Shown piece by piece: positions 1,825 through 51,983 of a DNA stretch of 64,000 nt. A program made the translations under genes and the position numbers. Position 1 is the stretch's first letter. Every line of letters starts with the position of its first letter. The stretch comes from a virus. The stretch lies in the IMG/VR virus record IMGVR_UViG_3300048817_000078, positions 6,072-70,071 of that record; one strand, written 5' to 3'. Under the pieces are notes generated by a model, which made no database searches, was not told the DNA's origin, and was given only the letters and a program-made list of their open reading frames with translations.

Positions 1825-4800
1825 ATGAAAAGACTCACACTGCTCCTGGGTGCGCTGCTGGCCCTCTGCGCGCCGATGGTACGCGCTCAAACCATTAATG
1901 CGGCGAGCTGCTCGGCTGCCGACGTGCAGACAGCCTTTAACTCAGTTGTCACCTCGACGACGCAGGTAAATATCCCGGCGGGGAGCTGCAACTGGACCAC
2001 TCAGGTCACACTCAATGTGCCTTCAGGAAATACCAACCTCTCCATCATTGGGGCCACCACGATAAGCGGGTCCTGCGCTCCCGGGGGAACCTGCACGGCA
2101 ACGGACAGCACAACGATTACCGACAACGATGGAGCAGACCAGAATTGCCTGATCTGTCTTGGTCCGGGCGTAGCATCATCCTTTTTCAGGCTTTCTGGGT
2201 TGACGGTAAACATTGGGTCAGGCCATGTGAAATACAACGGCATGGTCGCCGTAAGCGGATATTCGCAAAGTACTCGTCTTGATCATCTTCACCTGAATGC
2301 CGGTCCGAATACCCCGATGAGAATTGGCTCCGGCGGTTGGATGTATGGGGTCATGGACCACAGCATCATTGAAGACAGTGGAGCAGTCGACGTCTGGGAT
2401 GACAACTGGGGCAATCCCGGGGGTACGACGAATACCAATTATTTCGGCGATGATTCCTTTGCCACGGCGACGAACTTCGGTAGCGGAAACGCCTTCTTCT
2501 TTGAGAACAACGTCTTCAACAGCGGTTCGATTCCCGGGCAATCGGCCTCTTACATGAATGACTGCTATTCCGGCGGCCGACTCGTCATCCGCTATAACAC
2601 CATGAACAACGTGGGCATGGACGAGCACCCCACGGGGGGTGCCGGAGCCGACATCCGCGGCTGCCGGAGCATGGAGGTTTACGGAAACCAGTTCAACGGT
2701 GCTATTTCGCCGACGACCGAGACGTATGACTTCTTTTACATGCAGTCGGCGACGGCCCTGGTCTGGAACAATACCGCATCCGGCTACGAGCACTTTCTAG
2801 ATCTACACACCACGCGCAGTACCGATACCACCTATGCCCAGTCTCCTACCCCTGGAGGGTGGGGATATTGCGGAAGCACGTCGGGGCTCTCGGGGGATGA
2901 ATCCGCGTGGGATCAAACACCCACTTCAACCTATGGCTACAAGTGCCTGGATGAACCGGGAACCGGGCAGTCTGATCTGTTGAATGGAACGGCGCCAAGC
3001 AAAGTCGATACTGCGACAGGTACGTTAACCTGGCCAAATCAGGCGCTCGAACCACTCTATGAATGGCTGAACAGCTATACCCCCTCATCTGGCTTTCCCA
3101 GCTCGACCTATTACACCGGGTACGCTCCCGGCCTGGCTGCGAACACTGATTATTATGCGTACACCGGGAGTTTTACCGGCAGCAGCGGAACGGGCAGCGG
3201 ATTGCTCGCTTCGCGCCCCGCAAGCTGCACGACCGGCGTGGCCTACTGGGCGACCGACCAAAGCACGCTCTACAAGTGCGTGGGGACGAACAGCTGGGCA
3301 AGTTATTACACCCCTTACGTTTATCCGCATCCGCTCGACACTGGCGGGGGCAGTATCACGCTCGCCTCGATAGCGGTAACAGGAGCGAACACGACGGCCG
3401 TAGGAGGAACGGTCGATTTGACGGCAACCTGCACCTATACGGGTTCCGGGGCGCCGTCCCCGACCAATTGCACCGGACCGAGTACCGATTCTCAGGGAAA
3501 CGCAGCAACGTGGACAAGCGGCACAACCTTACATGCCACGGTGGGGTCGACGACAGGCATAGTCACGGGCGTGGCCGCCGGCACGTCCAACATCACGGCC
3601 ACTGCGGCCGGTGTCAATAGCCCGGGCTTTACTGTCACCGTTTCGTCGACCACCACGTATTACATGTCGCCCTCGGGAAGCGATTCGAATTCCGGCACAA
3701 GTTCGGGTTCGCCCTGGGCTACCCCTAACCACTCCATAGCTTGCGGCACCACGATTTCAGCGGCGGCGGGCGCTTACGGGACAGCCCTTGGCTTCGGCAA
3801 TTGGGGCACGGTAACGGGCTGCGGCTCGGGTTCATCGGAAAACATCGCGGCTGTGGTTTGCGCGACTCCATTCGCCTGCACGGTGAGCCTCACCAGCGGC
3901 TCGCCGGGCGTCGGGATAACGGCTTCCAACTGGGGCGTCTTTGGTTTCGTCGCCACGGCGACCGGCGGCACGGCATCGTGCTTCGAGGCCTACCCGCTGG
4001 GCGGCTCGACCATCCACCACATCGTTTTCGGGAACGATATCGCCAACGGCTGCAACAGTGCCGGCTTCTCGTCTCCTCCAAACGGATCTGCCGGCGTCGA
4101 TTATTTCAACGTCGTCGGATCGATCTCATACAACGGATCGCAGGAATCGTCCGAGTGCGGGAGCGGCATCTCCATCTGGGAACCGGTGCAAAGCGATACC
4201 TTGGCTGGCACCCATATTTACATTTCGCAGACGTTCGACTGGCATAACGTGAACCCGAACCCCTGCGCGGGCACGCCGCCCACCGACGGGGAAGGGATAA
4301 TCTTCGATACTTGGGATGCTAATTCGTACGCCCAGCAAGGCGTGATGGAAAACAACATCTCGCTCTACAACGGCAATACGGGACTTCGCGTTGACTCGAC
4401 CACCCTGGCCCACACCTTCATTCTGAACAACACGGCCTATGCGAACGCGCAGGATTCCGCAATGGTCTCCTCGGAGTTCGGCGAGATCTTTCTCCAGGAG
4501 GACAATAACGCAACCGCTTCCAAGAACATAGTGCAGCCGACGGTCAACACGGTTGGCGGCTACCCGGTTTACACCTATGGCCTCAGCTTCTACAGCGCCG
4601 GGTCACCGGGCACAAACACGGTATCGAATAACCAGGGCTACAGTTCGTTCGGGAACGACACGAATTGCCAGGGAACCTGCACCGGATTCACCTTCGGACC
4701 CGGGAACACGACCACGAACCCGTCATTTACCAGCGCCCCGGGAAGCGTCCCCAGCGCCCCGAGCTGCAGCTCCTACGCGACCGTGCCCGCTTGCATGGCG

Positions 4801-7800
4801 GCGCTCATCACGGACCTCACGCCGACAAACGGCAACGCCTCATGGGGCTACCAGCCGGTCTCAGGCAGCGTCGTATCCGACCCGTACTTTCCGGCGTGGC
4901 TATGCAATGTGACCCAGCTATCGGGCTTGGTCACCAGGGGATGCGCGGCAGGTCCCACCCTCAGTTCGATCGCCGTGACCACGACCGGTGGAATAACTAC
5001 CTTCGGAATCGGCGTAACGAATCAGCTCACCGCGACCTGCACGTACACCGGAAGCGGTGCGCCCTCGCCGACCAATTGCACCACGACCGATTCGCAGGGC
5101 AACCGCGCGTCCTTCACCAGCGGGACGCCGGCAACCGGAACAGTGACCTCGCCCGGCGGTCTCTTCACCGCGGTAGCGGCCGGCACGACGAACGTCACTG
5201 CCAATGTCGGCGCGGTCACCAGTTCGCCCGTCACCTTGACGGTGAGCCCATCGGTTCTCGCGGCCACGCCCAGCTTCTCACCGACCTCAGCCACGTTTAG
5301 CGGAAGCCTCTCCGTCACCATCTCGGATACGACTCCCAGCTCGACCATCTACTACACCAACGATGGCAGTACGCCTACGACGGGATCGACCGTCTATTCG
5401 AGCCCGTTGACGCTGACGGCTACCACCACGCTCAAGGCGATTGCCACGGCTTCGGGATTCGTGCAGAGCAACATCGGAACGTCTGTCTACACACTCTCAT
5501 CGGGCGGCGATACGCGCACGGTGACAGAGCCCGTCTTCCCGCCGGTATGCCAGGTGCTCAACGCGGTGCTCTCGATCGGCACAAGCACCTCGATCAATAA
5601 CGACCCCTACAACGTCACGCCTTACCTGCCGGCGAATAACTTCAGCTATGAGCCGTCGTCGGAGACGGCATTTGATACGACCCGCGTCCAGAACGCGCTC
5701 AATAGCTGCGCGAGCGGCCAAGCGGTAGAACTCGCACCCAGCACGGACGGCACCAAGTACGGCTTTCTTCTGCAACGCATCACCGTCCCCACGGGTGTGA
5801 GTCTCACGATCGACCCCGGCGTCGGCGTTTATGCCAGCAGGAACCCGGCCGACTACGGCGGGACCAATTGCGGCGTGGTAACCTCCGCGGGCGGCGGATG
5901 CAATCACTGGATCACGGGGCCGAACACAACCGGCTCCGGGATTTACGGCTATGGCCGCTTGGACGGCCGCGGATGGGACCGGCTCTTGGTCGGCGGCGTC
6001 CAGCAAAGCTATTCGTGGTACTCGAACACGATCCAGGCCTACTGCAATAAGCACAGCGGCGCAATCAACGGCTCGCCGCCTTGCACGCCGAACTCGCAGG
6101 GTGGAAATCAGTACGGCCCGAACATCTTAGCCATGGTCAACGCCAGCAGCTTCACGCTTTACAAGACGACCCTTCATGCCGGGCCGGAATTTCAATTTGA
6201 GTGGGAGGGCACTAACGGCGGTACGCAGGCAAACGGGCTGACCGTTTGGGGCGCGAAAATCATCACCCCATTTGAAACCAGCAATACCGACGGTATTGAC
6301 CCAACAAACAATTTTCAGAATGTCACGGTTGAGGACAGCTTCATATCCAATGGCGACAACCAGATGGCCATGAAGAGCACCAATGGCGGCGGCGCTGGAA
6401 AGAACGTCTCCATCCTGAATAACCATACCTATGCCGGAATCGAGATCGGCATCGGCAGCGATACGGGTGGAGGATTCAGCAACGTCGTCGTAAGCGGCCT
6501 CACGCAGAATGGCAACCTGAACAACGTCCAGAGCGCCGGCATTGGCATCAACAGCTCAACCTCCAATGGAGGCACCGTCTCAAACATCACGTTCACCGAT
6601 ATTTGCCAGGTGAACGAGCATGACACATGGAGGTTCTACACGAATTATGGCTGCGACACCGGCTCGCAGACCCCGCTCTATACCGGCATCAAGCTGTCGA
6701 ACATCACCGTCCTTCCCTCGACCGCGCCCTACACCACTGGCAACTCTGGATACTTCACCTTCCAGGGCCTCAACAGCAGCAACCTGATGGGTCTGTCGCT
6801 CAATAACATCAACATCAATGGAACCAACCAGGGCGTGACACAGCAGTGCAGCGTGACGAAGGACCAGTACGCGCAAATCGCCTTGGGCCCGAACTTTGTC
6901 GATTCCTCGCTATTGAGTCAGTTCGCAGCCGGGACGAGCGTCAACACGACCGGAAGCGGCAGCGGTGGCACGCCATACAACTGCAGCTATCCCTCAAGCT
7001 TCCAGCCCATCGTAGGCGAACTGTTGATGATGACGCCCACGGCAACCAACCAGCAATGCCGGCCGAACTGCACCTTCTCGGGTTCCACGGCAACGTACAC
7101 CTTGCAGGTAGTGATCCAGCCGGCGACTGAGATCAACTCCAAGGAGTCTTATGCGCTGACCAGCGGCCCGATCACGTTCTCTGACAATGGGACCCCGGTC
7201 GGCACGGCCACCATCGGGACCTACGGAGATAACGGAACGCTGGCGCAACTCACGCTGACCAACGTCGCCGCGGGCACCCACCACTATACGGCGACCTATC
7301 CCAGCGATGGCCATTATGCGTCGTGGACTCCATACACCTTTGGCAGTCTTAACGTCGATATCAACGGCTGCACTCCAGGCTGCACGGCGCCGCCGACATT
7401 CTCGCCGACCACCGAGGGCTTCACCGGCACGGTAACTGTCACAATCTCCGACTCCAGCCCATCGCCGACGATCTACTACACGACGGATGGAAGCGTACCA
7501 ACCACGGGCTCGTCGGTTTATTCAACTCCGCTGACCTTCAGCGCGACCACAACGTTGCGCGCCATTGCTACTTCGTCGGGACTCACCACGAGCACGTCGA
7601 GCCAAGCAGTCTATACGCTCGGATCGAACCCTGCAGCAACGCCAACCTTCTCGCCCAACTCCGAGACCTTCACCGGAAGCATCTCGGTAGTCATTAGCGA
7701 TTCGACCAGCAGTCCGACCGTCTATTACACGCTCGATGGTTCGACCCCGACGACCGCCTCCACGGTTTATTCTGGACCCCTTGCCATCTCCGCAAGCACA

Positions 7801-8382
7801 ACCGTCAAGGCAATTGCCACGGCGAGCGGCTTTACGCAAAGCGCGGTCGGAACCGCAGTCTATTCGCTGAGCGGTCCAACCGCAGCGACGCCTCTCTTTA
7901 CGCCGGGCTCGCAGGCGTTCACCGGGACGCTCTCGGTTGTGATCTCCGATACCACGCCGAGCTCGACGATCTACTACACAACCAATGGGACCACGCCCAA
8001 CACTGGCTCGACAGTCTATTCAGGCCCCATCAGCGTCTCGGCAAACACGATCATTAACGCCATTGCGGTCGCGACCGGGTACATCACGAGCGCCATGGGC
8101 ACGGCGACCTACACGCTGAGCAGCCAGACGCCGACCATCATTCCGGGCCCGCAGAAGTTCTCGACGACGCTGACGGTCAGCATCGTTAGTCCGGCGGGCG
8201 GCGTCATTCACTACACGGTGGACGGGAGCACGCCGACGAGTGCGTCGCCGCTCTATGCAGGGGCCTTTACGATCAGCGCAAGCACGACGGTGAAGGCGAT
8301 CACGATAGTCTCGGGCGTTACGAGCCTTCCGGCGACGGTGATCTATACGCAGGGGCAGTGTTTTGGGTGCTGGTGGAAATGA
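1825..8382 (+). CDS. 2185-aa Sec-exported multidomain protein: beta-helix, Ig (Big_2), beta-helix, Ig, chitobiase C-terminal repeat, GH28-like domain, Big_3, four more chitobiase repeats
   Basis: AAGGA RBS at 1814-1818, ATG 1825, signal peptide MKRLTLLLGALLALCAPMVRA|Q. GH28 hallmarks DTRTVTEP and NTDGIDP; YYTxDGSTP repeats. Confidence 0.85.
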   Translation: MKRLTLLLGALLALCAPMVRAQTINAASCSAADVQTAFNSVVTSTTQVNIPAGSCNWTTQVTLNVPSGNTNLSIIGATTISGSCAPGGTCTATDSTTITDNDGADQNCLICLGPGVASSFFRLSGLTVNIGSGHVKYNGMVAVSGYSQSTRLDHLHLNAGPNTPMRIGSGGWMYGVMDHSIIEDSGAVDVWDDNWGNPGGTTNTNYFGDDSFATATNFGSGNAFFFENNVFNSGSIPGQSASYMNDCYSGGRLVIRYNTMNNVGMDEHPTGGAGADIRGCRSMEVYGNQFNGAISPTTETYDFFYMQSATALVWNNTASGYEHFLDLHTTRSTDTTYAQSPTPGGWGYCGSTSGLSGDESAWDQTPTSTYGYKCLDEPGTGQSDLLNGTAPSKVDTATGTLTWPNQALEPLYEWLNSYTPSSGFPSSTYYTGYAPGLAANTDYYAYTGSFTGSSGTGSGLLASRPASCTTGVAYWATDQSTLYKCVGTNSWASYYTPYVYPHPLDTGGGSITLASIAVTGANTTAVGGTVDLTATCTYTGSGAPSPTNCTGPSTDSQGNAATWTSGTTLHATVGSTTGIVTGVAAGTSNITATAAGVNSPGFTVTVSSTTTYYMSPSGSDSNSGTSSGSPWATPNHSIACGTTISAAAGAYGTALGFGNWGTVTGCGSGSSENIAAVVCATPFACTVSLTSGSPGVGITASNWGVFGFVATATGGTASCFEAYPLGGSTIHHIVFGNDIANGCNSAGFSSPPNGSAGVDYFNVVGSISYNGSQESSECGSGISIWEPVQSDTLAGTHIYISQTFDWHNVNPNPCAGTPPTDGEGIIFDTWDANSYAQQGVMENNISLYNGNTGLRVDSTTLAHTFILNNTAYANAQDSAMVSSEFGEIFLQEDNNATASKNIVQPTVNTVGGYPVYTYGLSFYSAGSPGTNTVSNNQGYSSFGNDTNCQGTCTGFTFGPGNTTTNPSFTSAPGSVPSAPSCSSYATVPACMAALITDLTPTNGNASWGYQPVSGSVVSDPYFPAWLCNVTQLSGLVTRGCAAGPTLSSIAVTTTGGITTFGIGVTNQLTATCTYTGSGAPSPTNCTTTDSQGNRASFTSGTPATGTVTSPGGLFTAVAAGTTNVTANVGAVTSSPVTLTVSPSVLAATPSFSPTSATFSGSLSVTISDTTPSSTIYYTNDGSTPTTGSTVYSSPLTLTATTTLKAIATASGFVQSNIGTSVYTLSSGGDTRTVTEPVFPPVCQVLNAVLSIGTSTSINNDPYNVTPYLPANNFSYEPSSETAFDTTRVQNALNSCASGQAVELAPSTDGTKYGFLLQRITVPTGVSLTIDPGVGVYASRNPADYGGTNCGVVTSAGGGCNHWITGPNTTGSGIYGYGRLDGRGWDRLLVGGVQQSYSWYSNTIQAYCNKHSGAINGSPPCTPNSQGGNQYGPNILAMVNASSFTLYKTTLHAGPEFQFEWEGTNGGTQANGLTVWGAKIITPFETSNTDGIDPTNNFQNVTVEDSFISNGDNQMAMKSTNGGGAGKNVSILNNHTYAGIEIGIGSDTGGGFSNVVVSGLTQNGNLNNVQSAGIGINSSTSNGGTVSNITFTDICQVNEHDTWRFYTNYGCDTGSQTPLYTGIKLSNITVLPSTAPYTTGNSGYFTFQGLNSSNLMGLSLNNININGTNQGVTQQCSVTKDQYAQIALGPNFVDSSLLSQFAAGTSVNTTGSGSGGTPYNCSYPSSFQPIVGELLMMTPTATNQQCRPNCTFSGSTATYTLQVVIQPATEINSKESYALTSGPITFSDNGTPVGTATIGTYGDNGTLAQLTLTNVAAGTHHYTATYPSDGHYASWTPYTFGSLNVDINGCTPGCTAPPTFSPTTEGFTGTVTVTISDSSPSPTIYYTTDGSVPTTGSSVYSTPLTFSATTTLRAIATSSGLTTSTSSQAVYTLGSNPAATPTFSPNSETFTGSISVVISDSTSSPTVYYTLDGSTPTTASTVYSGPLAISASTTVKAIATASGFTQSAVGTAVYSLSGPTAATPLFTPGSQAFTGTLSVVISDTTPSSTIYYTTNGTTPNTGSTVYSGPISVSANTIINAIAVATGYITSAMGTATYTLSSQTPTIIPGPQKFSTTLTVSIVSPAGGVIHYTVDGSTPTSASPLYAGAFTISASTTVKAITIVSGVTSLPATVIYTQGQCFGCWWK
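3358..5244 (+). repeat. Two Ig-like (Big_2) domain copies at 3358-3642 and 4957-5244
   Basis: Both begin TLxSIAVT and share the identical peptide TATCTYTGSGAPSPTNCT. Confidence 0.8.
5260..8352 (+). repeat. Five chitobiase/beta-hexosaminidase C-terminal (Fn3-associated) repeats: 5260-5496, then four in tandem at 7384-8352
   Basis: Repeated consensus ATPxFSP...SVxISD...IYYTxDGSTPTxxSxVYSxP...TTxKAIA. Confidence 0.85.
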
Positions 8383-8576
8383 TGAACCTAAAGAGAAGAA
8401 TCCGGCAGTTCCTTACTCAGCCTCGCGAAATCAGACTGCAGCAATTCAAAGAGGCGGTCGCGCACATGGAAGAAACGATGACGCCAGAGGAGATGCGCCT
8501 CTTCGTAAAGTTCCCGTGCGGACCGCGGATGCTTGCGGAACAAAGAAAGAGACGCCTCAGTGGAAACGGCGGCTAG
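8379..8576 (+). CDS. Small hypothetical protein (65 aa)
   Basis: ATGA coupling to the giant gene; overlaps the NlpC/P60 start. Confidence 0.5.
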   Translation: MMNLKRRIRQFLTQPREIRLQQFKEAVAHMEETMTPEEMRLFVKFPCGPRMLAEQRKRRLSGNGG

Positions 8577-9090
8577 CGCGATATCCCGCGACGACGCGGT
8601 GAAGATTGCGCGGAGTTGGATTGGGACGCCGTACGTTTTAGGCGGACGGGTCAAGGGTGCAGGGACAGATTGCGCCACATGCCTGGCCGAGTACCTTCTT
8701 GAGTGCGGTTTCGCAGAGCGCGAGGATCTCGGCGTCTACTCGCACGATTGGTTCTGCCACGCGCCGGACGAGCGTTACATGCTGCGGCTGATTCGGCACG
8801 CACGCAAGACGTTGGAAGGCCGGTGCCGCGGCACGGTGGAAGCCTCGCCCGGCGACCTGATTCTCTTCAAGGTGGCGCGCTCCCGGCTCTTCAACCATGG
8901 CGGCATTGTGACCCGCTGGCCGTTCATGGTCCACGCTGCGAACCCGGTTGTGAAGGAACAGAACTGCGTGACTCACTGGATGACCGGGTATACCGAGTTC
9001 GCGGTGTTTGATCCTTGGCCTACTGAACAATCGCTAGCGCCTTCCGGTGGCTCAGCCTGTTTGGGTCCACACCTGTTAGGTACGCATTGA
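8560..9090 (+). CDS. NlpC/P60 tail-associated peptidase
   Basis: WIGTPYVLGG...GTDC...HGGIV...MVHA, with Cys/His catalytic residues; canonical position before the tail tip gene. Confidence 0.9.
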   Translation: METAASAISRDDAVKIARSWIGTPYVLGGRVKGAGTDCATCLAEYLLECGFAEREDLGVYSHDWFCHAPDERYMLRLIRHARKTLEGRCRGTVEASPGDLILFKVARSRLFNHGGIVTRWPFMVHAANPVVKEQNCVTHWMTGYTEFAVFDPWPTEQSLAPSGGSACLGPHLLGTH

Positions 9091-9247
9091 TGAATGACAG
9101 CGGCAACACCTTAGAACTCCATCCATAGGCGGCCATCAAAGGCTTCTTGTTTTGGTTATCCAGGCGGGTAGCCATTCGCTTTGTTCTGCACACCGAGACT
9201 TTAAACAGGTCACCGCGAATGTACGTAAAGACGAGCCACTTTTCCAT
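9020..9247 (-). CDS. Possible reverse-strand moron (75 aa)
   Basis: Fills the gap between NlpC/P60 and the tail tip gene; more AT-rich; no clear RBS. Confidence 0.3.
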   Translation of the reverse strand: MEKWLVFTYIRGDLFKVSVCRTKRMATRLDNQNKKPLMAAYGWSSKVLPLSFINAYLTGVDPNRLSHRKALAIVQ

Positions 9248-9277
9248 GAGCGCAATCTTACTTGGAGCGGGCCCTGA

Positions 9278-12200
9278 ATGCTAAGTGGAAAAGCAGCAGC
9301 CGCGACCAAGCCGACAGCGCTCGGGTCACTGCTCCAGGCTGCAACCTATGGGCAAACCATCCCGGTCATCTACGGGATGACGCAAAGCCCCTTGCTCGCC
9401 ATCTGGACCGCGAACATCCGCCAGGGCGGCAGCACAAAGAAGCTCAAGCAAGACATCAAGGGCGTGACCACATACGTCGAGAACATCGACTTCTTGCTCG
9501 GGCACAACCCCATCATGGGTGTCCAGCAGATGTGGAATAACGGGAGTCCCATCCCGCTCAACTTCATCACCCTCGCGGTGGGCGGGTCCGGGGCGGCCTC
9601 CTACACCATCGATGACCCGTATTTCTACTCGATCATCGCGGTCACGGTGGACCAGACATACACCGACGTGGTCTTCAACGATTACGGCGGGAACGGGCCG
9701 CAGAGCCTTTCGGGTACCATGCCCACGCCGTGTTGGAACACGCTGTTTTCCGGGCCGGCCTGGATTTCGCAGCAGCGCAACTTCCCATATACCTACCGCT
9801 GGGAGCCTTCGTACGGGTCGACGTTCTATCTCGACGGGCCGTTTTATGCCGCTCCAGGCGGCGTGGTCACGGTCTACTATACGCAGCTCAGGGCCGCCAC
9901 CAGCTACCTGCCGCCGATCCAAAAGGAGATGCTTGTCTTCGAGCCGCAGCTCGGCTCCGGGGCCGAGTACGAGGACGCCAACCTTACGGCCCAGCAGATC
10001 GTCTACCCGATGTTCGCGGGGCTTGGATCCTCAAGCATCGACCTCGGCGCGGGCGGCGTAATCCCGCAACTGCAGGTCGAGGTCCAGGGCAAGTGGGGCC
10101 TCTATCCAACCGGCGATGCCGACTTCGCCGACATGATCGAGGACGTCTTCCGCTCAGGCGTTGCCCAGGCAGCAATCGGCGACACCACCGGAACCATGCC
10201 GGGGTTTACCCAGGTTGAGCACGGGCTTTCGGGCTACGACTTTCCCGGCTGCGTGCAGAATCAATTTGCGGGCGGCGCGGATTTTCCTTCAAATCCCATC
10301 CCGTACAACCAGCCGAATACGAAGGGGAATTTCCTGGTCGTCATCGCCACTTCCGGGGCGACGGCCACGCTGGGCATATCGGACACGGCAGGGAACACAT
10401 GGACACCGCTGCTCGCCTCGGGCCTGTATATGCAGGTCTGGTGGGCACAAGCAAAAGCGTCAGGCCCAAACACCGTCGCAATCAGCGGGCCGCAGGGAAA
10501 CGACAGCGGCACGCAATTGCTCGAGATTGGAGGCGTCGACACCTTTGACAGTTCGACCATCGGAACGAGCCCGAGCGTTTCCCAGGTAACAACCAATCAG
10601 CAGGGCTTCCCGGCCTACATTCTTACCTTCTCGCTGTGGACGCCCGGCTCGCCCGGCTTTAGCACGACGCCGAATATACCGCTCTGGACGCCACTCAACG
10701 CGCCGAGCAACGTTTACGACCTGAACGCTCCCTATGAGTTAATCTTTTCGCGCACCGTGGAAACGCCGGGGACATACAAGTTCACGATGCCGCAACCCAG
10801 CTCGAATCCCAGCTACGTTTGCTCGCTGGCGTTCAAGTGCGCCATCGCGCCGCCAAGCTATCCGGCGCCGGTCGGCGACTACGTCGACAATTACTCGCTC
10901 GACACGGTACGCCTGCAATGCCGCGCCAATGGCCTCTGGGGCTCGCTCACGATGGATTCCCAGCAGGCGGCGAGCGATTGGCTGACTACGCTCTACCAGG
11001 CGGCCGACGCGGCGCCGCTGTTCATGGGGTTCAAGCTTTACAGCATCCCCTACTCGGAAGTCTCGAAGATTGGGAACGGCGCCATCTTCAACGCCTACAC
11101 GGCGTGCGGGCCGATCGCAAATCTGAGCACGGAGAACGGGGACTTCGTCGCATCGGGAAATACCCCACCGCTGACCATCAAGACGGCCGCACGCGTTGAC
11201 CAGCCAAACGTGCTGCAGATGCAGTGCATCAACCGGAGCTCGAACTACAACCCGAGCGTGGTCGAGCAACCGGACGCGGTGGGGATCTCGCTCTTCGGCA
11301 TACGCAAGGCCGACCCGGTGCAGAATTACGCCATCCAGGATGTGTCAATCGCGCGCCAGATTCTCGGCATCATGGTGCGCAAGCTCCAATACGGGGGAGA
11401 CGTTGCCAGCTTTACGGTCCCGGCCAAATGGTGCCTGCTCTCGCCGATGGATTTGATTACGGTGACGGACCCGCTCATGGGCGTCAATCAGTTACCCGTG
11501 CGCATCACCTCGATGGCCGAGCAGACCGACGGCTCGATCCAGTGCCAGGCCGAGCCCTTCGTTTACGGCATGTACGCGCCCACGCCGTTTTCAGCGAGCC
11601 AGTCCGGGGGCAGTTCGCCAAGCACGGGTGCAACCGTCACTCAGCCGATAAATCCGCCCATCATCTTCGAGCCGGTTCCGGGGCTGATCGGCTCGGCAAA
11701 TCAGGGCCAGGTGTGGCTTGTCATCTCGGACCCGGACCCGAACTTCGCCGGCGCGCAGGTCTACATCTCAACCGATGGCGGAGCGAGCTATATTTCCGCA
11801 GGTTCGCCCACCATAGGAAACGGAGTTCAGGGCGTCACCGTGGACGATTGGCCGGGTGCATCGAGCCCTGATACGACGAATAACCTCAGCGTCAACCTTA
11901 CCGAGAGCGCGGAGACACTTCAGAGCTACCCGGTCGCAACCGAGGATGGGTTCGTTTATCCCTGCTATGTAGAAAACGGGCCTCCGACGCCAGTCCTGCG
12001 TGGCTCTTCGTTTCTAACTCAGGGCCCAATTAGCAACACGATCCTCATCCCTCTCCCGGCCGGCTCAGAGGTGGGGGACCTTGCAATCCTTTTCGCTTCT
12101 GCCGGCGACAACATAGCCCCGGTCCCAGAAACCGGATGGGCGAACGCATACAGCGGGGGCGGCGGCGGCCCCTGGTCACAAATCTCCGTATATAAGCTGC

Positions 12201-12985
12201 TGATTAGCTTCGATATCACACTCGGATATGTGGAGGTCCAGTGCCCCGCAGGAGCCTTCGATATGGCTGGCGGGCTCGTCGTATTCGTTGGGCCTACTGG
12301 CGGCATACGCGAAACCGAGGGCATCGGAGGAGATGGCGGCAACATAACCCTGACCAACACGACTTCCGGGGCGGTTCTCGATACTGACGTGGCTGTTTAC
12401 TGGGCCTCTCTTCGCCAAGATGGCGGCCCCATCGATGCGCCCGTCATTACACCATCGACCGGCACAGCTAATACCCTTGGCGGTTCCGGAACGACGAATA
12501 TCTATGCCCTACTCGCAGATCAGGTTATGCCGGGTGGCGCGGTCACGGTCGAAAATAACTTTGTCGCGGCCGGCAACGGAGGCTTTGCGGTCCAAGTGAT
12601 TGTCGAGAGCGCCGCAACGCCAGAAGTGCCGTATGAGTTGATGACCTACGGCGCGGCGACGCTGACTGCGGTTTACAACTACACCCTTATGGCCACCGGG
12701 GTCGGAAACCATCTGGACCGTGCAGTTCTCGGGGCGCCGGCTACGGGCGTCGGCGTCGACCATCCAAACGGCTCTGCATTCGCCCTTCTGCCGCCGAGCG
12801 GACAGGGCATTTGCAAAGTACCGTTGCTGCCGGCCTGGGTCGGCGAAACGGTGCATTTCAAGATGCTCCCCTTCAATTCCTTCGGCGTCGTGACGGGAAC
12901 GCTCGCCGACGCAACCGCATACCCATACACGGTCCTCGGCACGAGCGGGACGGGTGCCCAAACTATCTCGGTTAATGGTTCTTAG
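9278..12985 (+). CDS. Tail tip / host-specificity protein (Phage-tail_3-like), 1235 aa
   Basis: YGQTIPVIYG N-terminal motif, LSPMDLITV/RITSM segment, GGAG RBS; follows NlpC/P60. Confidence 0.85.
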   Translation: MLSGKAAAATKPTALGSLLQAATYGQTIPVIYGMTQSPLLAIWTANIRQGGSTKKLKQDIKGVTTYVENIDFLLGHNPIMGVQQMWNNGSPIPLNFITLAVGGSGAASYTIDDPYFYSIIAVTVDQTYTDVVFNDYGGNGPQSLSGTMPTPCWNTLFSGPAWISQQRNFPYTYRWEPSYGSTFYLDGPFYAAPGGVVTVYYTQLRAATSYLPPIQKEMLVFEPQLGSGAEYEDANLTAQQIVYPMFAGLGSSSIDLGAGGVIPQLQVEVQGKWGLYPTGDADFADMIEDVFRSGVAQAAIGDTTGTMPGFTQVEHGLSGYDFPGCVQNQFAGGADFPSNPIPYNQPNTKGNFLVVIATSGATATLGISDTAGNTWTPLLASGLYMQVWWAQAKASGPNTVAISGPQGNDSGTQLLEIGGVDTFDSSTIGTSPSVSQVTTNQQGFPAYILTFSLWTPGSPGFSTTPNIPLWTPLNAPSNVYDLNAPYELIFSRTVETPGTYKFTMPQPSSNPSYVCSLAFKCAIAPPSYPAPVGDYVDNYSLDTVRLQCRANGLWGSLTMDSQQAASDWLTTLYQAADAAPLFMGFKLYSIPYSEVSKIGNGAIFNAYTACGPIANLSTENGDFVASGNTPPLTIKTAARVDQPNVLQMQCINRSSNYNPSVVEQPDAVGISLFGIRKADPVQNYAIQDVSIARQILGIMVRKLQYGGDVASFTVPAKWCLLSPMDLITVTDPLMGVNQLPVRITSMAEQTDGSIQCQAEPFVYGMYAPTPFSASQSGGSSPSTGATVTQPINPPIIFEPVPGLIGSANQGQVWLVISDPDPNFAGAQVYISTDGGASYISAGSPTIGNGVQGVTVDDWPGASSPDTTNNLSVNLTESAETLQSYPVATEDGFVYPCYVENGPPTPVLRGSSFLTQGPISNTILIPLPAGSEVGDLAILFASAGDNIAPVPETGWANAYSGGGGGPWSQISVYKLLISFDITLGYVEVQCPAGAFDMAGGLVVFVGPTGGIRETEGIGGDGGNITLTNTTSGAVLDTDVAVYWASLRQDGGPIDAPVITPSTGTANTLGGSGTTNIYALLADQVMPGGAVTVENNFVAAGNGGFAVQVIVESAATPEVPYELMTYGAATLTAVYNYTLMATGVGNHLDRAVLGAPATGVGVDHPNGSAFALLPPSGQGICKVPLLPAWVGETVHFKMLPFNSFGVVTGTLADATAYPYTVLGTSGTGAQTISVNGS

Positions 12986-14454: not shown

Positions 14455-14458
14455 ACAT

Positions 14459-14806: not shown

Positions 14807-14967
14807 TTCAGTCTCCAGCGGGGAAGGGACCTACAATCTATCATGGCCGGCGCGAAAAGAGCGAGCCAATCACCGTTCCGGGCCATCAAAGCAAAGTAGG
14901 GCTCCAGGCCAGGGCAGGTAGTAACGAAGTACCGCGGTAACCATTCAAACTGGGGAGTGACCTGGCC

Positions 14968-15531: not shown

Positions 15532-15554
15532 AAGCGGCTAGACCGCGAAGGCAC

Positions 15555-15580: not shown

Positions 15581-15596
15581 ATTGGTGAAAAACGGA

Positions 15597-17724: not shown

Positions 17725-17727
17725 GCG

Positions 17728-43040: not shown

Positions 43041-44867
43041 GTGGCCACCGCCTCAACCCTCAGCCCGGAAGAGTGGGAGGAATGGCGACAACGCAAGGAG
43101 TTGTCTCACCCGGTAGGTTTCGCCGAGAGATGGCTCGCGTCCGACGTCTGGGGCATTCAGAAAGACATTCTTGAGGCAATTGCCAGCGGCTCAAAAATAG
43201 CCGTGAAAGCCTGCCACTCCAGCGGAAAGACATACATCGCCGCAGTCGCCGTTCTGTGGTTTCTATCTCGCCATAGCGAGGCGATTGTTGTCACGACGGC
43301 ACCCACGCACAACCAGGTCGAGAAGCTGCTCTGGGGAGAAATCCACTCGGCTCTGGCCAGATCGAGTTACCCGTTCCCGAAAGCGACCCTCACCGAGCTA
43401 AAGTTTGGCCCGAAACGTTACGCGCTCGGATTCACGACCAGCGTCACCAAGCAGGACGAAGGCGTAAAGTTTCAGGGTTTCCACGCTGAAAACATTCTCG
43501 TGGTTCTGGACGAGGCACCTGGCGTAGACGCAAAAATCTGGGAAGCCATCGAAGGCGCACGAGCCGGCGGGAACGTCTCCATCCTGGCGCTGGGCAATCC
43601 GACAATCGCATCCGGCCCGTTCCACGAATCCTTCCACGGTAACCGGGAGGCTTGGAAGCTATTCACAATCTCGGCTTTCGATACGCCGAACTTTGATGGC
43701 GTAAGCCTCACTTACCGGGGCGACGATGGCAGGCCGGTTACGCTGGGGCACGGCAGTACGGACCTCCTGGACCTCAAGGAGGAAGAACTCGATACCAACA
43801 TTCGCCCGTATCTCACAACGCGGCGGTGGGTGAAGGAGAAGTTCTTCGAGTGGGGGCCAGGACATCCGCTCTGGGAATCCCGCGTGTGCGGCAACTTCCC
43901 GGCGCAGGCTGAAGATGCGCTGCTATCGCTGGCATGGTTGGAGCGTGCCAAGAATTCCGAACGCATAGGCGTCGGCAAAGTTACTGCTGGCCTCGACGTT
44001 GCTGGACCTGGCGAGGATGAGACGGTTCTCACAATTCGACGCGGTCCTCAAATCCTGTTGCAGAAGTCGTGGCCGCAAGCGGATCCACGTGGTTCGGTTA
44101 TCGCAGAGTTGAATCCGTACAAGCCCGAACTCGAAGCCGTCAACGTTGATTCAATCGGCATCGGCTGGGGAATGTATCAGCATCTCCTGGACCATAAGTT
44201 TCCGGCGCGAGCGGTCAACGTCGGCGAAAGTCCGCTGGACGACGAGAAGTATGCAAACCGAAAGGCCGAACTCTATTGGGGCTTGCGGATGCGGCTGCAG
44301 GCTGGCGACATGTCCGGGCTCATGGACGAACGCTGCATAGGCCAACTCGCCGGGATTCGCTATAAACACAATGCGCGCGGACAGGTCCAGATTGAAAGCA
44401 AAGACGACGCCCGGAAGCGCGGAGTGAAATCGCCGGATAGGGCGGAGTCGGTAATGCTCGCCTTTGCGAGTAATAATCAAACCTACGGACTCATCGAGTA
44501 CATGAAGCAACTCGACAAGGATCTTATGGCGAAGCGACTGTGCAAGAGAACGAACGGGCACGACAACGGGAAGAAAGAAAGCCCGCTAGGCTCGTTGAAA
44601 GGCGTGCTCGCCGAACCGGGCGACGAGATAGCGCCAAACATCAATCCGCTGGCGAAGACGAACGGGCACGCACCCGACGCTGAGACGCCCCATACCGACG
44701 AGAAGATCGCGGTTGACATCCCCAGCAACGTAGACCGGTGCCCGGAGTGCAAGAGCGTTCTTGTGCAGCGCGTGGCCGGCGGCAAGCGGTGCGGGCAATG
44801 CGCTCACCAGTGGCAGCAACCGGGCTTGCGAATGGGCCAGGTTAGCCCGGGGCAGTTGAGGAAATAG
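43041..44867 (+). CDS. terL: Terminase large subunit with C-terminal zinc-ribbon extension
   Basis: Walker A ACHSSGKT, Walker B VVLDEA, nuclease GLDVA...D, SPDRAES. Confidence 0.95.
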   Translation: MATASTLSPEEWEEWRQRKELSHPVGFAERWLASDVWGIQKDILEAIASGSKIAVKACHSSGKTYIAAVAVLWFLSRHSEAIVVTTAPTHNQVEKLLWGEIHSALARSSYPFPKATLTELKFGPKRYALGFTTSVTKQDEGVKFQGFHAENILVVLDEAPGVDAKIWEAIEGARAGGNVSILALGNPTIASGPFHESFHGNREAWKLFTISAFDTPNFDGVSLTYRGDDGRPVTLGHGSTDLLDLKEEELDTNIRPYLTTRRWVKEKFFEWGPGHPLWESRVCGNFPAQAEDALLSLAWLERAKNSERIGVGKVTAGLDVAGPGEDETVLTIRRGPQILLQKSWPQADPRGSVIAELNPYKPELEAVNVDSIGIGWGMYQHLLDHKFPARAVNVGESPLDDEKYANRKAELYWGLRMRLQAGDMSGLMDERCIGQLAGIRYKHNARGQVQIESKDDARKRGVKSPDRAESVMLAFASNNQTYGLIEYMKQLDKDLMAKRLCKRTNGHDNGKKESPLGSLKGVLAEPGDEIAPNINPLAKTNGHAPDAETPHTDEKIAVDIPSNVDRCPECKSVLVQRVAGGKRCGQCAHQWQQPGLRMGQVSPGQLRK

Positions 44868-44885: not shown

Positions 44886-45164
44886 ATGATCGACGACCAC
44901 GTCATCGGCGACATCATCGGCTTCGCCACAACCATTGCGGTTACAATCACCAATCAGATTTTCGTGGAACGCCGCGCCGACCGCGCGCGAAGGGCAGTCG
45001 CGCATACGGTGGTTGCGAGCGAGGCAAAGATAGCCACCGCCCTCGACGTGCATCAGTCCGTCGTGGACGGAAACCTCAAAGAGATTCGGGACACGGCGAC
45101 GGCCAACAATAAGTCGATCGCTGTAGTCCAGGCCACGCTCGACGCCAAGGGAGGTTACGAATGA
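44886..45164 (+). CDS. Small membrane/coiled-coil protein
   Basis: N-terminal hydrophobic helix; ATGA coupling. Confidence 0.5.
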   Translation: MIDDHVIGDIIGFATTIAVTITNQIFVERRADRARRAVAHTVVASEAKIATALDVHQSVVDGNLKEIRDTATANNKSIAVVQATLDAKGGYE

Positions 45165-45325
45165 TCTTCATCCTACTGCTCGTGCTGATCGTCGCCGGCA
45201 TCCTGATGTACGCGCTCTGCACCAGGGACAAGCTGGCCGAGATTGGCCGCATCATGTTCGGCATCGGGCTGTTCTTCCTGGCGTGGACGCTGTTGACCGG
45301 GCACGGGATTTCGCTGCCGAAGTAG
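45161..45325 (+). CDS. Two-helix membrane microprotein (54 aa)
   Basis: GGAGG RBS; almost fully hydrophobic. Not in the ORF track. Confidence 0.6.
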   Translation: MIFILLLVLIVAGILMYALCTRDKLAEIGRIMFGIGLFFLAWTLLTGHGISLPK

Positions 45326-46189: not shown

Positions 46190-46594
46190 ATGCCTGAAAA
46201 TACTCATTCCCTCCTCGCCGAATTGGTGGCAAAAGTGCGCTGCAAGCCTGAATGGTTCTTCAGGCTTCGAGATGAAGAAGGGGCTCTCAGGCTCGTCATA
46301 ACCGTGGGCGGCTACGACTCTTACAACGAGGGAGGTGGGCGGCTGCGCGTTGCCCATTGCTTTCCCGTTCCGATGGCTACATACAACGAAAAGAGCTGGT
46401 GCCGCTGGATTTTTGAGATGTGTCGTCGGGTTGAAAATCATGAGTTAGGCGAATGGTTCAAAGTTGGCGAGAAAAGACCCTTTGCCCCGTTACACGGCCC
46501 CGGCGAAGATCCCTATACCGTGCATGAATTCCGAGATAAAGTTGATGCGCAGACACTGCAAGACGGCTCTGTTGCGGAGGTAATCAAATGCTGA
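46190..46594 (+). CDS. Conserved phage hypothetical protein
   Basis: FPVP...W..WIFE....VENHELGEWF...RPFAPLHGPG.DPY motif. Confidence 0.65.
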   Translation: MPENTHSLLAELVAKVRCKPEWFFRLRDEEGALRLVITVGGYDSYNEGGGRLRVAHCFPVPMATYNEKSWCRWIFEMCRRVENHELGEWFKVGEKRPFAPLHGPGEDPYTVHEFRDKVDAQTLQDGSVAEVIKC

Positions 46595-46758
46595 TACTTC
46601 TCATCGTTCTCCTGCTCGTCTTCGGATTCGGCGGCTACCACTATGGCTGGCGAGGCCCGGCTGAAAACAGGAATCCTGTTGTCGGGTATGGCGGCGGCGG
46701 AATGTCACTGCTCCTGCTCATTCTCATCATCCTGTTACTGGCGGGATATCTCCGGTGA
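46588..46758 (+). CDS. DUF3309-like Gly-rich membrane microprotein (56 aa)
   Basis: MLILLIVLLLVFGFGGYHYG...GYGGGGMSLLLLILIILLLAG; GGAGG RBS. Not in the ORF track. Confidence 0.65.
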   Translation: MLILLIVLLLVFGFGGYHYGWRGPAENRNPVVGYGGGGMSLLLLILIILLLAGYLR

Positions 46759-47516: not shown

Positions 47517-49901
47517 ATGGCCAACTCACAGACCGCAATCATGCGGCCGCTTGCGGGGCTTGCTCGTGCGTTTGCGGCCATGCAGAGCAGGTTGTATCAA
47601 CCGCCGCCGGTCACGATTGCGGGAGTAAACGAACAGAACTGGCCGAGCGCATTACAGCCGGTGCAGCCGGTAGGCCCTCCAGGCAGTCAGCCGCTGCTAT
47701 GGTCGTTCTGGCAAGGCGTCAATCAAAATATTACCCCGCGGCCCGATGCGGAGCTAAGCTTTGGTCAACTCCGCGGGCTTGCAACGTATCCGCTGGCACG
47801 CATCTGCATTGAGAACATCAAGGACCAGGTCTCATCGCTGAAGTGGACTTACCAACTTCGGGAGACGCCGGGCGAATCGCTGAAGGATCGACGCAAGCGC
47901 CAGGAGAACGACAAAAACATCCCGATGCTGGCCGAGTTCTTCGCGTTCCCGGACGGCGATACACCGTGGTCCGATTGGGTGCGCCCGCTGCTCGAGGATT
48001 TGCTGGTCATCGATGCGGGTTGCATCTTGGTTCAGCGAACGCTATCCGGCAAGGTCGTCAAGCTTCGCGTACCAGACGGCGCCGACATTTTGCGGCTGAT
48101 CGACGACCAGGGCTATACGCCAGCACCGCCATCACCGGCCTACACGCAGCTGTGGGAAGGCATCCCGCGTGTACTGCTGACGACAGACCAGCTTGTCTAC
48201 CGGCCGCGAAATATCGTGCGCCGCGGCACGGTCGCATCCCAGCTTTACGGCTTCGGCCCGACGGAGGGCATTAGAACCGAACTCGAATGCGGCATCGAGC
48301 GCCTGCGCTACGTTCTGGCCTACTACACGGATGGCTCTGTACCCGGCATCGTGCAGATGGTGCCGCCGGGCGTCAGCGTGGACGCAATCCTCGAAGGCAT
48401 GCAGTGGATGAACTCGGACCTCGCTGGCCAGCTTGCCAAGCGCCGGCAATGGCGCAACGTGCAGAGCTTTTCGGGCAATGTCGCCGAAGGGCCGAAGGAC
48501 CAAGTCCACCAACTCAAGGAGCCCGTTCTCGCGGACGTTTACGACGACCTGCACATCCGCAAGGTAGCCTTCGCGTACGGGGCATCGGCACAGCGGTTGC
48601 TCCGCATGATGAACCGGGCCTCCGCGATGGCCGGCCAGGAGGCAGCCCAAGAAGAAGGCACCATCCCCTGGGTGCAATGGCTCAAGGCGACGATCGACAT
48701 CGTCATCCAGCGCAAGATGGGCTTGCCGGGTTACGAGGCGATTCCGGACACGGCGGTTGAACTCGATCCCACGAAGCAGATGGAAATCGATACTGGCTAT
48801 GTGAAGTCCGGCGTCTTCACTATCAACGAGCGGCGGGATATGCGTGGCGCCGAACCGCGGCCCGAGCCCGAAGCAAACGGCCTGATGGTCATCACGGCAA
48901 CCGGCGCCATTCCGTTGGCTGGCGCAATCGAGAGAACAGCCGAGCAGCACACGGCGGACATTCAGCCAGCGCCGACGCCGGTCATCTCGCCACCAGGCGG
49001 AGGTGGAGCGGCACCGAAGAAGCCGGCAGCTAAACCGGCCGCAAAAGCCGATGACGAAAGCGTAAAAAAAAAAGTAGCTGAAGCCCCGGCCATCAGCCCG
49101 GTGCCGCACACGCCGTCTTTGGCGCTGGCGAAGACCAAGCTTTACTCGCACGTCGCCCACTTCCTATTTGAGGCCGGGAAGAAAGCCGCAACGGTCAAGG
49201 TTGAGAAGCGGCTGCGCAAGGCAACCAACCCAACACCCGACGACATCGACCAGCTCGTCACCGCAGCACTCGGCGCGGTCAACTGGGAAGAACTGGTCGG
49301 CCTGACGGAGCCGGAGATTGAAGCCGCTGCGATCGAGGGCGCGAGAGTCGGGCTGGCCGAGGAAGGCATCGAGATCACGCCGGGCGTTATCCCGACGACG
49401 GAAGTCCGGGCGCTGATCAGCGAGGTGAACGCAACGGCCCGTGACTGGGCACAGCAACGCGCCGCCGAAATGGTGGGGATGAAGTATGTCGACGGCAAAC
49501 TCGCTGAGAATCCAAACGCCAAGTGGCGTATTGATTTGGCAACCCGTTCGATGCTCCAACGCGACATTACTGCGGCGTTTGCAGGCAACACGCCACTCAG
49601 TGATTTGGCAGCAACGATTAGAGCATCCGGTGCGTTTGACCAAGCCCGAGCCGATCTGATCGCGACGACCGAAGTCAGCAACGCCCAGATGCGAGGCAAC
49701 GCTGAGGCTTGGCTGAAGAACGGCAACGTCCAGGAATTCAAGTGGCAGCTGAGCGCGGACCACGTTTGCTGCGATGAATGCGACATCATGGCGATCAACA
49801 GCCCGTACCCGGTGGGGAAGGTCTTAGAGTTGCTGGACCAGCGCCACCCGCGTTGTCAATGCGCGGTGATCGGCACCAAGATTAAAGGCGTCGATTTGTG
49901 A
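47517..49901 (+). CDS. Portal protein fused to a MuF/SPP1 gp7-type head morphogenesis domain
   Basis: Portal-type N-terminus (YG.GP.E, GSVPG); MuF-type C-terminus RADLIATTE...KW...CDEC...HPRCQC; A10 run at the junction. Confidence 0.85.
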   Translation: MANSQTAIMRPLAGLARAFAAMQSRLYQPPPVTIAGVNEQNWPSALQPVQPVGPPGSQPLLWSFWQGVNQNITPRPDAELSFGQLRGLATYPLARICIENIKDQVSSLKWTYQLRETPGESLKDRRKRQENDKNIPMLAEFFAFPDGDTPWSDWVRPLLEDLLVIDAGCILVQRTLSGKVVKLRVPDGADILRLIDDQGYTPAPPSPAYTQLWEGIPRVLLTTDQLVYRPRNIVRRGTVASQLYGFGPTEGIRTELECGIERLRYVLAYYTDGSVPGIVQMVPPGVSVDAILEGMQWMNSDLAGQLAKRRQWRNVQSFSGNVAEGPKDQVHQLKEPVLADVYDDLHIRKVAFAYGASAQRLLRMMNRASAMAGQEAAQEEGTIPWVQWLKATIDIVIQRKMGLPGYEAIPDTAVELDPTKQMEIDTGYVKSGVFTINERRDMRGAEPRPEPEANGLMVITATGAIPLAGAIERTAEQHTADIQPAPTPVISPPGGGGAAPKKPAAKPAAKADDESVKKKVAEAPAISPVPHTPSLALAKTKLYSHVAHFLFEAGKKAATVKVEKRLRKATNPTPDDIDQLVTAALGAVNWEELVGLTEPEIEAAAIEGARVGLAEEGIEITPGVIPTTEVRALISEVNATARDWAQQRAAEMVGMKYVDGKLAENPNAKWRIDLATRSMLQRDITAAFAGNTPLSDLAATIRASGAFDQARADLIATTEVSNAQMRGNAEAWLKNGNVQEFKWQLSADHVCCDECDIMAINSPYPVGKVLELLDQRHPRCQCAVIGTKIKGVDL

Positions 49902-51626: not shown

Positions 51627-51983
51627 ATGGCAGCGCGCCTCTGGCTCCTCTCGCTGTTTCTGGCCCTGCCCATGTGGGCGCAGACATACCCGTGCAAGAT
51701 TATTGCGGACAGCGGTGGCATCAAAGACGCCAAGTGCGTCGCACTCAAAATGGCTGCTATGGTACCAGCCTCGCTCTGCGGCGGCCCGGGCACAAGCTGC
51801 ATGGTGGACGACGACCCCAAGCTCCTTGAGCAGCCGACTGTTGACGGCGAATATGAGCTTTATCTTCATAATCCGGATAGGGCCGAGACAGTGACCATGC
51901 CGGCGAATACGGTGTGCGAGTTCGCCGAAGACCATGTGGTGTGCCACATTCCGCCATCTTCCCCCAGTTCCGCATCTTACTAA
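51627..51983 (+). CDS. Small exported Cys-rich protein
   Basis: Signal peptide MAARLWLLSLFLALPMWA|Q; six Cys in the mature part. Confidence 0.65.
   Translation: MAARLWLLSLFLALPMWAQTYPCKIIADSGGIKDAKCVALKMAAMVPASLCGGPGTSCMVDDDPKLLEQPTVDGEYELYLHNPDRAETVTMPANTVCEFAEDHVVCHIPPSSPSSASY

Follow-up and report, generated by a model that had tools for sequence, protein, structure and literature searches.

Host-type export signals on tail-operon fibre-like proteins and other products of a soil phage probably infecting Acidobacteriota

By the usual view, the particles of tailed phages are assembled wholly in the cytoplasm, and the exported proteins that phages encode tend to be no more than a handful of small morons or factors for lysis. 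What is to be made, then, of a phage that seems to address its largest fibre-like proteins, and several others, to the periplasm? The question is raised by the linear, 71,979-bp IMG/VR virus record IMGVR_UViG_3300048817_000078, analysed here through a 64,000-nucleotide stretch (bases 6072-70071 of the record, hereafter the window; negative positions lie upstream of it). The record represents a 72-kb soil phage, probably of Acidobacteriota. It is a siphophage genome of temperate type, close to complete, whose tail tip resembles that of gene transfer agents (GTA); the window covers most of this genome.

Judging from sequence, 11 of the approximately 95 encoded proteins are predicted to carry genuine host-type export signals: nine for Sec and signal peptidase I (SPase I), one for Tat and one for lipoprotein processing. 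Altogether, the predicted exported set comprises 4,681 amino acids (aa), or 19.5% of the record. It consists of several separate modules, not of one machine. The bulk is formed by two late cassettes of the tail-tip operon, one with open reading frames (ORFs) of 233-528 aa (proteins A-D; Table 1) and one with the 2185-aa protein E. The remaining groups are a pair of small β-rich proteins beside the endolysin (G and H), an antisense moron (F), a small lipoprotein of the early region (J) and an early-region pair, also found in host chromosomes, of a signal-less GH13-like protein and a Tat-exported propeller (I).

Export signals and the host they match

Genes were called with a self-trained codon-usage caller. 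The rule-based test for Sec signals demanded a charged n-region, an uncharged hydrophobic core (h-region) of 8-15 residues, small residues at -3/-1 and a cleavage site inside the first 15-40 residues; signals were judged also by comparison of homologues. ORFs starting at window positions -3230, -1558, -857, 1825, 14806 (minus strand), 16563 and 16974 passed it, and those at -2342 (SMA/Q; the slash marks the predicted cleavage site) and 51627 (MWA/Q) were accepted as Sec substrates by eye. The signal of protein E reads MKRLTLLLGALLALCAPMVRA/QT, with cleavage at ..VRA/QT, and that of protein F, MLIKIMLLMLALGGVASA/GE (...GGVASA/GE), is the only one of the Sec sites without Gln at +1. Additionally, a Tat signal was recognised at 25877 (MNRREMLQLSALSLAAGALPARA/Q) and a lipobox at 33097 (MRRLWVATLLLAG/C). 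The patterns applied were a twin-arginine motif of the S/T-R-R-x-F-L-K kind ahead of a weakly hydrophobic h-region and an AxA site for Tat, and [LVI][ASTVI][GAS]C closing a signal peptide for lipoproteins.

The original prediction had named eight exported proteins. All eight starts exist as written, 14806 being the start of a minus-strand ORF, and seven of the proteins stand: the Sec substrates at 1825, 14806, 16563, 16974 and 51627, the Tat substrate at 25877 and the lipoprotein at 33097. The eighth, at 39954, looks Tat-like but was rejected as a gene (coding score -5.0, third-codon-position G+C 0.60, no homologue). Four consecutive Sec ORFs just upstream, at -2342 and its neighbours -3230, -1558 and -857, were added to the list; the last of them runs into positions 1-729.

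Hydrophobic N-termini need not be export signals. They might instead be removed by a phage protease, serve as assembly or trimerisation helices or be artefacts of start assignment, in which case the proteins would be cytoplasmic parts of the virion. Signal-peptide predictors do flag some phage capsid proteins (PMC10367356), and our own heuristic wrongly scored a holin and a protease-like protein as signal-bearing. We nevertheless regard this explanation as very improbable. The N-termini combine a positive n-region, an h-region of 10-15 residues and an A-x-A/Q site, and this organisation is conserved across divergent homologues. For protein A, signals are present in at least 37 of 50 homologues despite sequence divergence, and in an alignment of 32 members of the family the Gln at +1 is the only invariant column. 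Homologues of protein D with at least 40% identity mostly have ..A/Q signals; some signal-less members of the family start with M-ATPTLVQ, exactly at the predicted mature end of the signal-bearing ones (..A/ATPTLVQ). The twin arginine at 25877 is kept in nearly all homologues with at least 43% identity, and more distant chromosomal homologues have Sec-type signals. An 85-aa homologue of lipoprotein J, encoded on an unrelated phage contig (L014, ORF 9224-9481), has VWVIG/C at the corresponding place and shares the C-terminal motif.

The cysteine content of the predicted exported proteins is likewise unlike that of other virion proteins. It amounts to 2.24% in the exported set versus 1.12% in the remaining proteins, and nine of the ten Sec/Tat proteins have an even number of Cys in the mature part (6, 4, 4, 12, 46, 2, 2, 2 and 6; the propeller has 13). 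The tape measure, the distal tail protein, the adaptor and the 399-aa fibre contain no Cys at all. The same holds for a 129-aa signal-less paralogue of the N-terminal domain of protein A, which is Cys-free where A has a Cys pair.

Glutamine directly follows nine of the ten Sec/Tat cleavage sites, or approximately seven of eight independent families, confirming an earlier remark that most of these proteins share this feature. The A/Q pattern also occurs in exported proteins encoded by host chromosomes. With the same heuristic, 42 of 119 calls from 1.4 Mb of chromosomal Acidobacteriota sequence had Gln at +1 (21 of 63 families after de-replication), as did eight of 22 calls from 360 kb of Granulicella aggregans, versus four of 22 in Escherichia coli K-12. 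By this heuristic estimate, the Acidobacteriota rate is 33-36% of signal-peptide calls against a Gln background of about 4%. The +1 Gln of the phage thus follows a host tendency, seen by heuristic in about one third of Acidobacteriota signal peptides, and its own rate is above even that of Acidobacteriota. The 'Q-rule', by which most SPase I substrates have Gln at +1 that is cyclised to pyroglutamate, has been described only for Bacteroidota, and Acidobacteria were not analysed in that context (PMC5837995, PMC10653852). The phage shares the Gln of this rule; homologues and the link to phage Tunturi_4 (below) point to Acidobacteriota and not to a Bacteroidota host. The near-universal +1 Gln suggests Q-rule-like protection of N-termini outside Bacteroidota. 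Genes for glutaminyl cyclases of the Glu_cyclase_2 family were found in all three Acidobacteriaceae genomes tested and in two other genomes; since they also occur outside Acidobacteriota, their presence is permissive and not diagnostic.

The most likely host is a bacterium of Acidobacteriota (Terriglobia). This assignment, also made in the original prediction, remains a best guess. It follows from the distribution of the propeller family in Acidobacteriaceae/Terriglobales, a fibre motif shared at 70% identity with Tunturi_4, a phage of Tunturiibacter, the A/Q style of the signals and a G+C content of 59%. Matching the phage tRNA-Arg(CCT) to genomes, as had been proposed, yielded no phage attachment site (attP) and no host call.

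Signal-bearing cassettes in the tail-tip operon

The tail tip follows the canonical order of the Rhodobacter capsulatus gene transfer agent (RcGTA): g12 (DUF2460), g13 (hub), g14 (NlpC/P60) and g15 (Phage-tail_3). It differs by two signal-bearing insertions, which among the loci examined are shared only with Logan contig L028. The first, of approximately 4.4 kb, lies at the junction of the distal tail protein and the hub (g12/g13) and contains the 129-aa signal-less ORF followed by proteins A-D. The second, of approximately 6.6 kb, lies at the hub-NlpC/P60 junction (g13/g14) and encodes protein E. All cassette ORFs are co-oriented and tightly packed with the tail genes, with no strong terminator before 15555-15575. 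In ten related IMG/VR loci (hub identity 50-56%; L004-L013), genes for the distal tail protein, hub, P60 and Phage-tail_3 protein are directly adjacent; the ten relatives are without the insertions but have signal-bearing proteins in fibre position behind the tail gene. Contig L028 has the same architecture as our phage: signal-bearing ORFs of 312 and 272 aa stand 5' of the hub gene, two CHB_HEX_C proteins with signals (766 and 1478 aa) are encoded 3' of it, and all have A/Q sites. Since both insertions are shared, the arrangement has been inherited and maintained.

The cassette proteins are of the fibre/spike type rather than typical morons, combining fibre modules with a position in the tail operon, as receptor-binding proteins do. 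Proteins A and B have a C-terminal domain in common, and the N-terminal domain of A is 50% identical to the 129-aa ORF that directly precedes it. A motif of protein A (LTGDV.AGPG.GSQ..TLATVN...G.CGDATHV.Q.T.NAKG), which occurs as several repeats in some homologues, is 70% identical over 57 aa to the 'tail protein' gp113 of Tunturi_4. The AlphaFold2 (AF2) model of protein A is confident for the C-terminal domain only; matches of this modelled domain in BFVD are minor-tail, fibre and 'tail fibre C-terminal domain' proteins of phages. Searches of Pfam and PHROGs with proteins A-D, F, G, H and L and with the big signal-bearing proteins of relatives gave no match.

In protein E, residues 1268-1629 (about nt 5626-6711) form a GH28-like domain with homology over approximately 360 aa to the right-handed β-helix of the endo-polygalacturonase PehA (PDB 1BHE; E = 3.9e-35 and 3.1e-37), and five CHB_HEX_C_1/Fn3_assoc repeats were detected (E = 1e-74; best copy at aa 1944-2010). 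Its active site is altered: NTDGIDP is intact and GDD retains its first Asp, but GDD reads GDN, GHG reads GIE and RIK reads GIN. Unlike PehA, the domain forms part of a signal-bearing multidomain protein of 2185 aa. Classical tailspikes are not known to have a signal peptide. The GH28-like helix may bind or cut a glycan other than pectin. A homologue search with protein E mainly returned CHB_HEX_C repeat matches, spread over many large secreted proteins, and did not resolve where the protein came from.

What would such proteins do beyond the cytoplasmic membrane? Late in infection they would be translocated by Sec and cut at A-x-A/Q. In the periplasm they would acquire disulfides and, probably, an N-terminal pyroglutamate; they would then act outside the cytoplasm on host surface polysaccharide in a lectin-like or depolymerase-like manner and be freed at lysis. 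This would make them agents working apart from the particle built in the cytoplasm, a proposal in which our confidence is about evenly divided; export itself we infer from the signals. We lean towards free proteins because a conventional signal-less fibre is also present and no docking route is known.

Several observations weigh against this proposal. The position in the tail operon and the fibre-tip domain agree with virion components no less than with free enzymes, and signal-bearing proteins are the main large fibre-like gene products of both the related phage G002 and Tunturi_4. Three of the four GH28 signature motifs are lost, so enzymatic depolymerisation is unproven. The export signals were scored by a crude heuristic with the false hits mentioned above, and with four of 22 in the E. 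coli control the host excess of +1 Gln is moderate and the samples are small. As to the host, the call rests on the distribution of homologues and one shared fibre motif; tRNA-Arg(CCT) is only 81-82% identical to its counterparts in three Acidobacteriaceae genomes (75-82% across five genomes), and a scan of genome contigs with an alignment of hub proteins found no prophage relatives.

The foremost alternative is assembly in two compartments. The signal-bearing fibres would then be receptor-binding proteins of the virion, oxidised and N-terminally cyclised in the periplasm, which dock onto the tail tip built in the cytoplasm only once holin and endolysin have mixed the compartments. Such a route, which we consider possible though rather unlikely, would explain why the cassettes are encoded between essential tail-tip genes, an arrangement conserved in L028, and why their products have a fibre repeat motif and a fibre-tip fold. 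The signal-less, Cys-free paralogue of A encoded right after the distal tail protein could be a stub or adaptor. Large proteins in fibre position all bear signals in the related phages G001 and G002 and in the cultured Tunturi_4, and in a podovirus-like contig members of the A and D families, again with signals, stand last in the structural operon. Such a route would seem to be common in phages of Acidobacteriota. On the other hand, the literature searched gave no report of a tailed phage assembling in this way, and the signal-less fibre together with the Phage-tail_3 protein could suffice for adsorption. The product annotated as 'tail assembly protein' in Tunturi_4, encoded between gp111 and gp113, is signal-less, and the paper describing this phage reports no virion proteomics and does not mention signal peptides (PMC11924767).

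Comparison with relatives shows how far the trait extends. Four related phages of 33-41 kb (G001-G004) have two to four heuristic hits each; directly after the Phage-tail_3 gene, each of them encodes one large, Cys-rich protein of 580-1118 aa and a pair of small β-rich proteins, all three with signals; the small ones are distantly or weakly related to G and H. One of the four, G002 (IMGVR_UViG_3300032895_000009), has direct terminal repeats and measures 40.7 kb. Our phage is about 30 kb larger than G002, and about 11 kb of that corresponds to the two tail-operon insertions.

Tunturi_4 (PP885687; PMC11924767), a cultured siphophage of Tunturiibacter (Acidobacteriota), gave seven hits per 88 kb with the same heuristic. 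Its gp111, gp113 and gp114 are consecutive large fibre-region proteins with Sec-type signals and 12, 8 and 20 Cys, and they share the even Cys counts of our cassette proteins. Tunturi_4 is otherwise unrelated and has a prolate head, and its fibre genes end the structural region instead of standing between hub genes. In the annotation, the 'tail fiber protein' gp111 (PP885687.1 80076-83171; L027/W01) begins with a GTG at 80433. Moving the start 119 codons upstream in frame yields MNRISKAIGLCALALSVGSSYG/QT, a signal of Sec type that is present only with this proposed start.

In the podovirus-like contig, the structural operon ends with signal-bearing A-family and D-family proteins. The lambda control, run with the same heuristic, returned Lom, Rz and one false hit, plus the lipobox of Bor. 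Since G001-G004 and the cultured Tunturi_4 carry signal-bearing proteins in fibre position, the trait is typical of the clade and, apparently, of Acidobacteriota phages. The original prediction was to be refuted by an export density typical of related phages, and this applies by half: the trait is ordinary among them, whereas the load is about twofold higher here (19.5% versus about 8-10% of the sequence in relatives).

A fifth of the genome, including the largest fibre-/depolymerase-like genes amid core tail-tip genes, appears to be addressed to the periplasm with host-matched signals. If the products are free enzymes, phages of soil bacteria rich in extracellular polysaccharide would place glycan-active proteins outside the cell ahead of lysis; if they belong to the virion, a new branch has to be added to the way in which tailed phages are assembled. 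Because both Tunturi_4 and its Tunturiibacter host are in culture, the question of two-compartment assembly is directly testable.

Exported proteins elsewhere and the propeller pair

The exported genes occupy at least five unrelated contexts: the tail operon, an antisense ORF, the vicinity of the endolysin, the early region and the head module. This distribution speaks against the claim, made in the original prediction, of one coordinated system for the host envelope and carbohydrate stores. A single phage programme remodelling the envelope and the stores (glycogen), during infection or in lysogeny, would account for the many exported proteins found alongside GH13-like, GH28-like and carbohydrate-binding modules, and the antisense protein F and the small lipoprotein J would suit genes for lysogenic conversion or exclusion. 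The modules named earlier are indeed real: the GH28-like helix and the five CHB_HEX_C_1 repeats of protein E, and a GH13-like protein matching 3qgv (archaeal α-amylases) end to end over aa 31-425 (E = 3e-21). We consider such a programme improbable all the same, as the genes belong to separate expression classes as well as contexts, the largest exported proteins are fibre-like and not enzymes of envelope biogenesis, and the same kinds of genes stand in other positions in relatives. Moreover, no glycogen pathway context was seen here, and the genes for the GH13-like protein and the Tat propeller form a unit that is conserved in chromosomes.

In the GH13-like family, the catalytic Asp/Glu/Asp of regions II, III and IV (D193, E220, D288/D290) are invariant in 15 members. 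The His residues of regions I, II and IV are not conserved (D-V-LHQ, RIDEAKD and ENAD). The substitutions in regions I and II are family-wide, and NPD or NAD replaces NHD in region IV. The gene stands about 1.7 kb upstream of the propeller gene here and in two otherwise unrelated phage contigs (L014 and L016). Of 80 chromosomal loci, mostly of Acidobacteriaceae (L030-L109), 33 have the two genes side by side, and the GH13-like gene is signal-less throughout. Phage copies are without the C-terminal domain of about 125 aa found in chromosomal ones. As the pair is conserved in bacterial chromosomes, the GH13-like protein is not evidently an enzyme of glycogen stores.

The propeller has more than 300 homologues. 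It is encoded by 324 species genomes, with identities of at most 46%, overwhelmingly of Acidobacteriaceae, Terracidiphilus, Granulicella and Sulfotelmatobacter; copies on phage contigs are 63-98% identical. The AF2 model of protein I (predicted local distance difference test, pLDDT, 85) is an eight-bladed β-propeller. Fold searches returned only generic eight-bladed propellers of the PQQ-dehydrogenase/BamB-like kind with 10-14% identity, and a PDB sequence search gave no match. A role as glutaminyl cyclase was considered and dropped, there being no Glu_cyclase_2 match and eight blades instead of five. Sequence comparison thus presents the GH13-like protein and the Tat propeller as an uncharacterised two-gene module of Acidobacteriota that has been picked up by phages. 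In an Acidisarcina sp. chromosome (L029, 5671-11950), the propeller gene and its 564-aa upstream partner adjoin a gene for a GH78 α-L-rhamnosidase; this neighbour hints at a polysaccharide-related role of the pair.

Proteins G and H, encoded beside the endolysin gene, are paralogues with 49% identity. They resemble XepA, the 'PBSX exported protein' from the late/lysis region of Bacillus subtilis PBSX, in being exported products of the end of a late operon next to lysis genes. XepA differs in its monoderm host and, probably, in its fold. Lom, Bor and Rz/Rz1 of lambda have Sec or lipoprotein signals and are encoded beside tail or lysis genes, and F and J fit this type. Lambda has three or four small envelope proteins with their own expression signals, whereas here there are 11 proteins and the largest are co-oriented in the late operon.

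The closest precedent for the signals themselves comes from phages of Porphyromonas gingivalis, in which five signal-peptide genes obey the 'Bacteroidetes Q-rule', read by the authors as an adaptation to the secretion and glutaminyl-cyclase system of the host (PMC10367356). Both cases involve phage genes with host-type Sec signals whose cleavage exposes Gln. The P. gingivalis genes belong to Bacteroidota prophages and encode five proteins of unknown function; our phage most likely has an Acidobacteriota host, and its signals are mostly on large fibre-/depolymerase-like proteins of the tail-tip operon, which with the other exported proteins take up a fifth of the genome. The known category of phage-encoded exported proteins is thereby extended to fibre/spike proteins of the tail operon, and a Q-rule-like signal style is extended beyond Bacteroidota.

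Genome layout and other features

Nearly all genes are on the plus strand of the window. The hallmark set comprises terminase, portal-MuF, capsid, adaptor, tape measure, a GTA-type tail tip, integrase and RecT, and two DNA methylases are also encoded in the window. Both ends of the 71,979-bp record are tape-measure sequence with internal repeats (window 62739-64000 onward; L002:4-1076), which indicates a genome near completeness that was opened inside this gene; the CheckV completeness figure of 82% for the record is probably an underestimate. An Rfam search returned the tRNA as its sole match.

Table 1 Predicted exported proteins and other features of the phage, with positions relative to the window
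Feature	Position	Strand	Remarks
Protein A	start -3230		289 aa; Sec signal; upstream of window
Protein B	start -2342		263 aa; Sec signal; upstream of window
Protein C	start -1558		233 aa; Sec signal; upstream of window
Protein D	start -857	+	528 aa; Sec signal MKKLLWALMAACCMLPAIALG/QY; 12 mature Cys; C-terminal 242 aa = 1-729
Tail hub	863-1795	+	GTA g13-like, Phage_phiJL001_Gp84_N; signal-less
Protein E	1825-8382	+	2185 aa; Sec signal aa 1-21 (nt 1825-1887); 46 mature Cys
NlpC/P60 tail peptidase	8533-9090	+	GTA g14-like; signal-less
Phage-tail_3 host-specificity protein	9278-12985	+	GTA g15/lambda J-like; signal-less
Conventional fibre-like protein	13255-14454	+	399 aa; no signal; no Cys
Protein F	14459-14806	-	115 aa; Sec signal; antisense to late operon; coding score +25.9
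Endolysin	15585-16121	+	GH108 + PG_binding_3; signal-less
Protein G	16563-16961	+	132 aa; small, β-rich; Sec signal ..ATAPA/QF; 2 Cys
Protein H	16974-17363	+	129 aa; Sec signal ..SPALA/QS; 2 Cys
GH13-like protein	22764-24086	+	440 aa; signal-less; partner gene of Tat propeller
Protein I (propeller)	25877-27688	+	603 aa; Tat signal MNRREMLQL..PARA/QA
Tyrosine integrase, small ORF, tRNA-Arg(CCT)	29405-30793	+	tRNA at 30717-30793
Protein J	33097-33357	+	86-aa lipoprotein; lipobox LLAG/C
ORF K	39954-40220	+	88 aa; RRRFF N-terminus; doubtful gene, uncounted
Terminase	43041-44867		
Portal + MuF	47517-49901		single 794-aa ORF; Pfam Phage_portal aa 95-444, Phage_Mu_F aa 681-758
Protein L	51627-51983	+	118 aa; head module; Sec signal ..LPMWA/QT; 6 Cys; GGAGG ribosome-binding site
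Probable capsid protein	55521-57317		

A scan of positions 1-18000 for promoters and terminators stayed at or below the expectation from shuffled sequence, with the exception of one strong terminator-like hairpin at 15555-15575; the endolysin gene begins 10 nt beyond it. No spanin pair was recognised near the endolysin. The last gene of the late operon, preceding the hairpin, encodes a 187-aa protein with a hydrophobic C-terminal segment (14968-15531). Additionally, three small ORFs (43-56 aa) at 45161-45325, 46588-46758 and 31734-31865 encode very hydrophobic products, each predicted to span the membrane once or twice; two of them fall between the terminase and portal genes.

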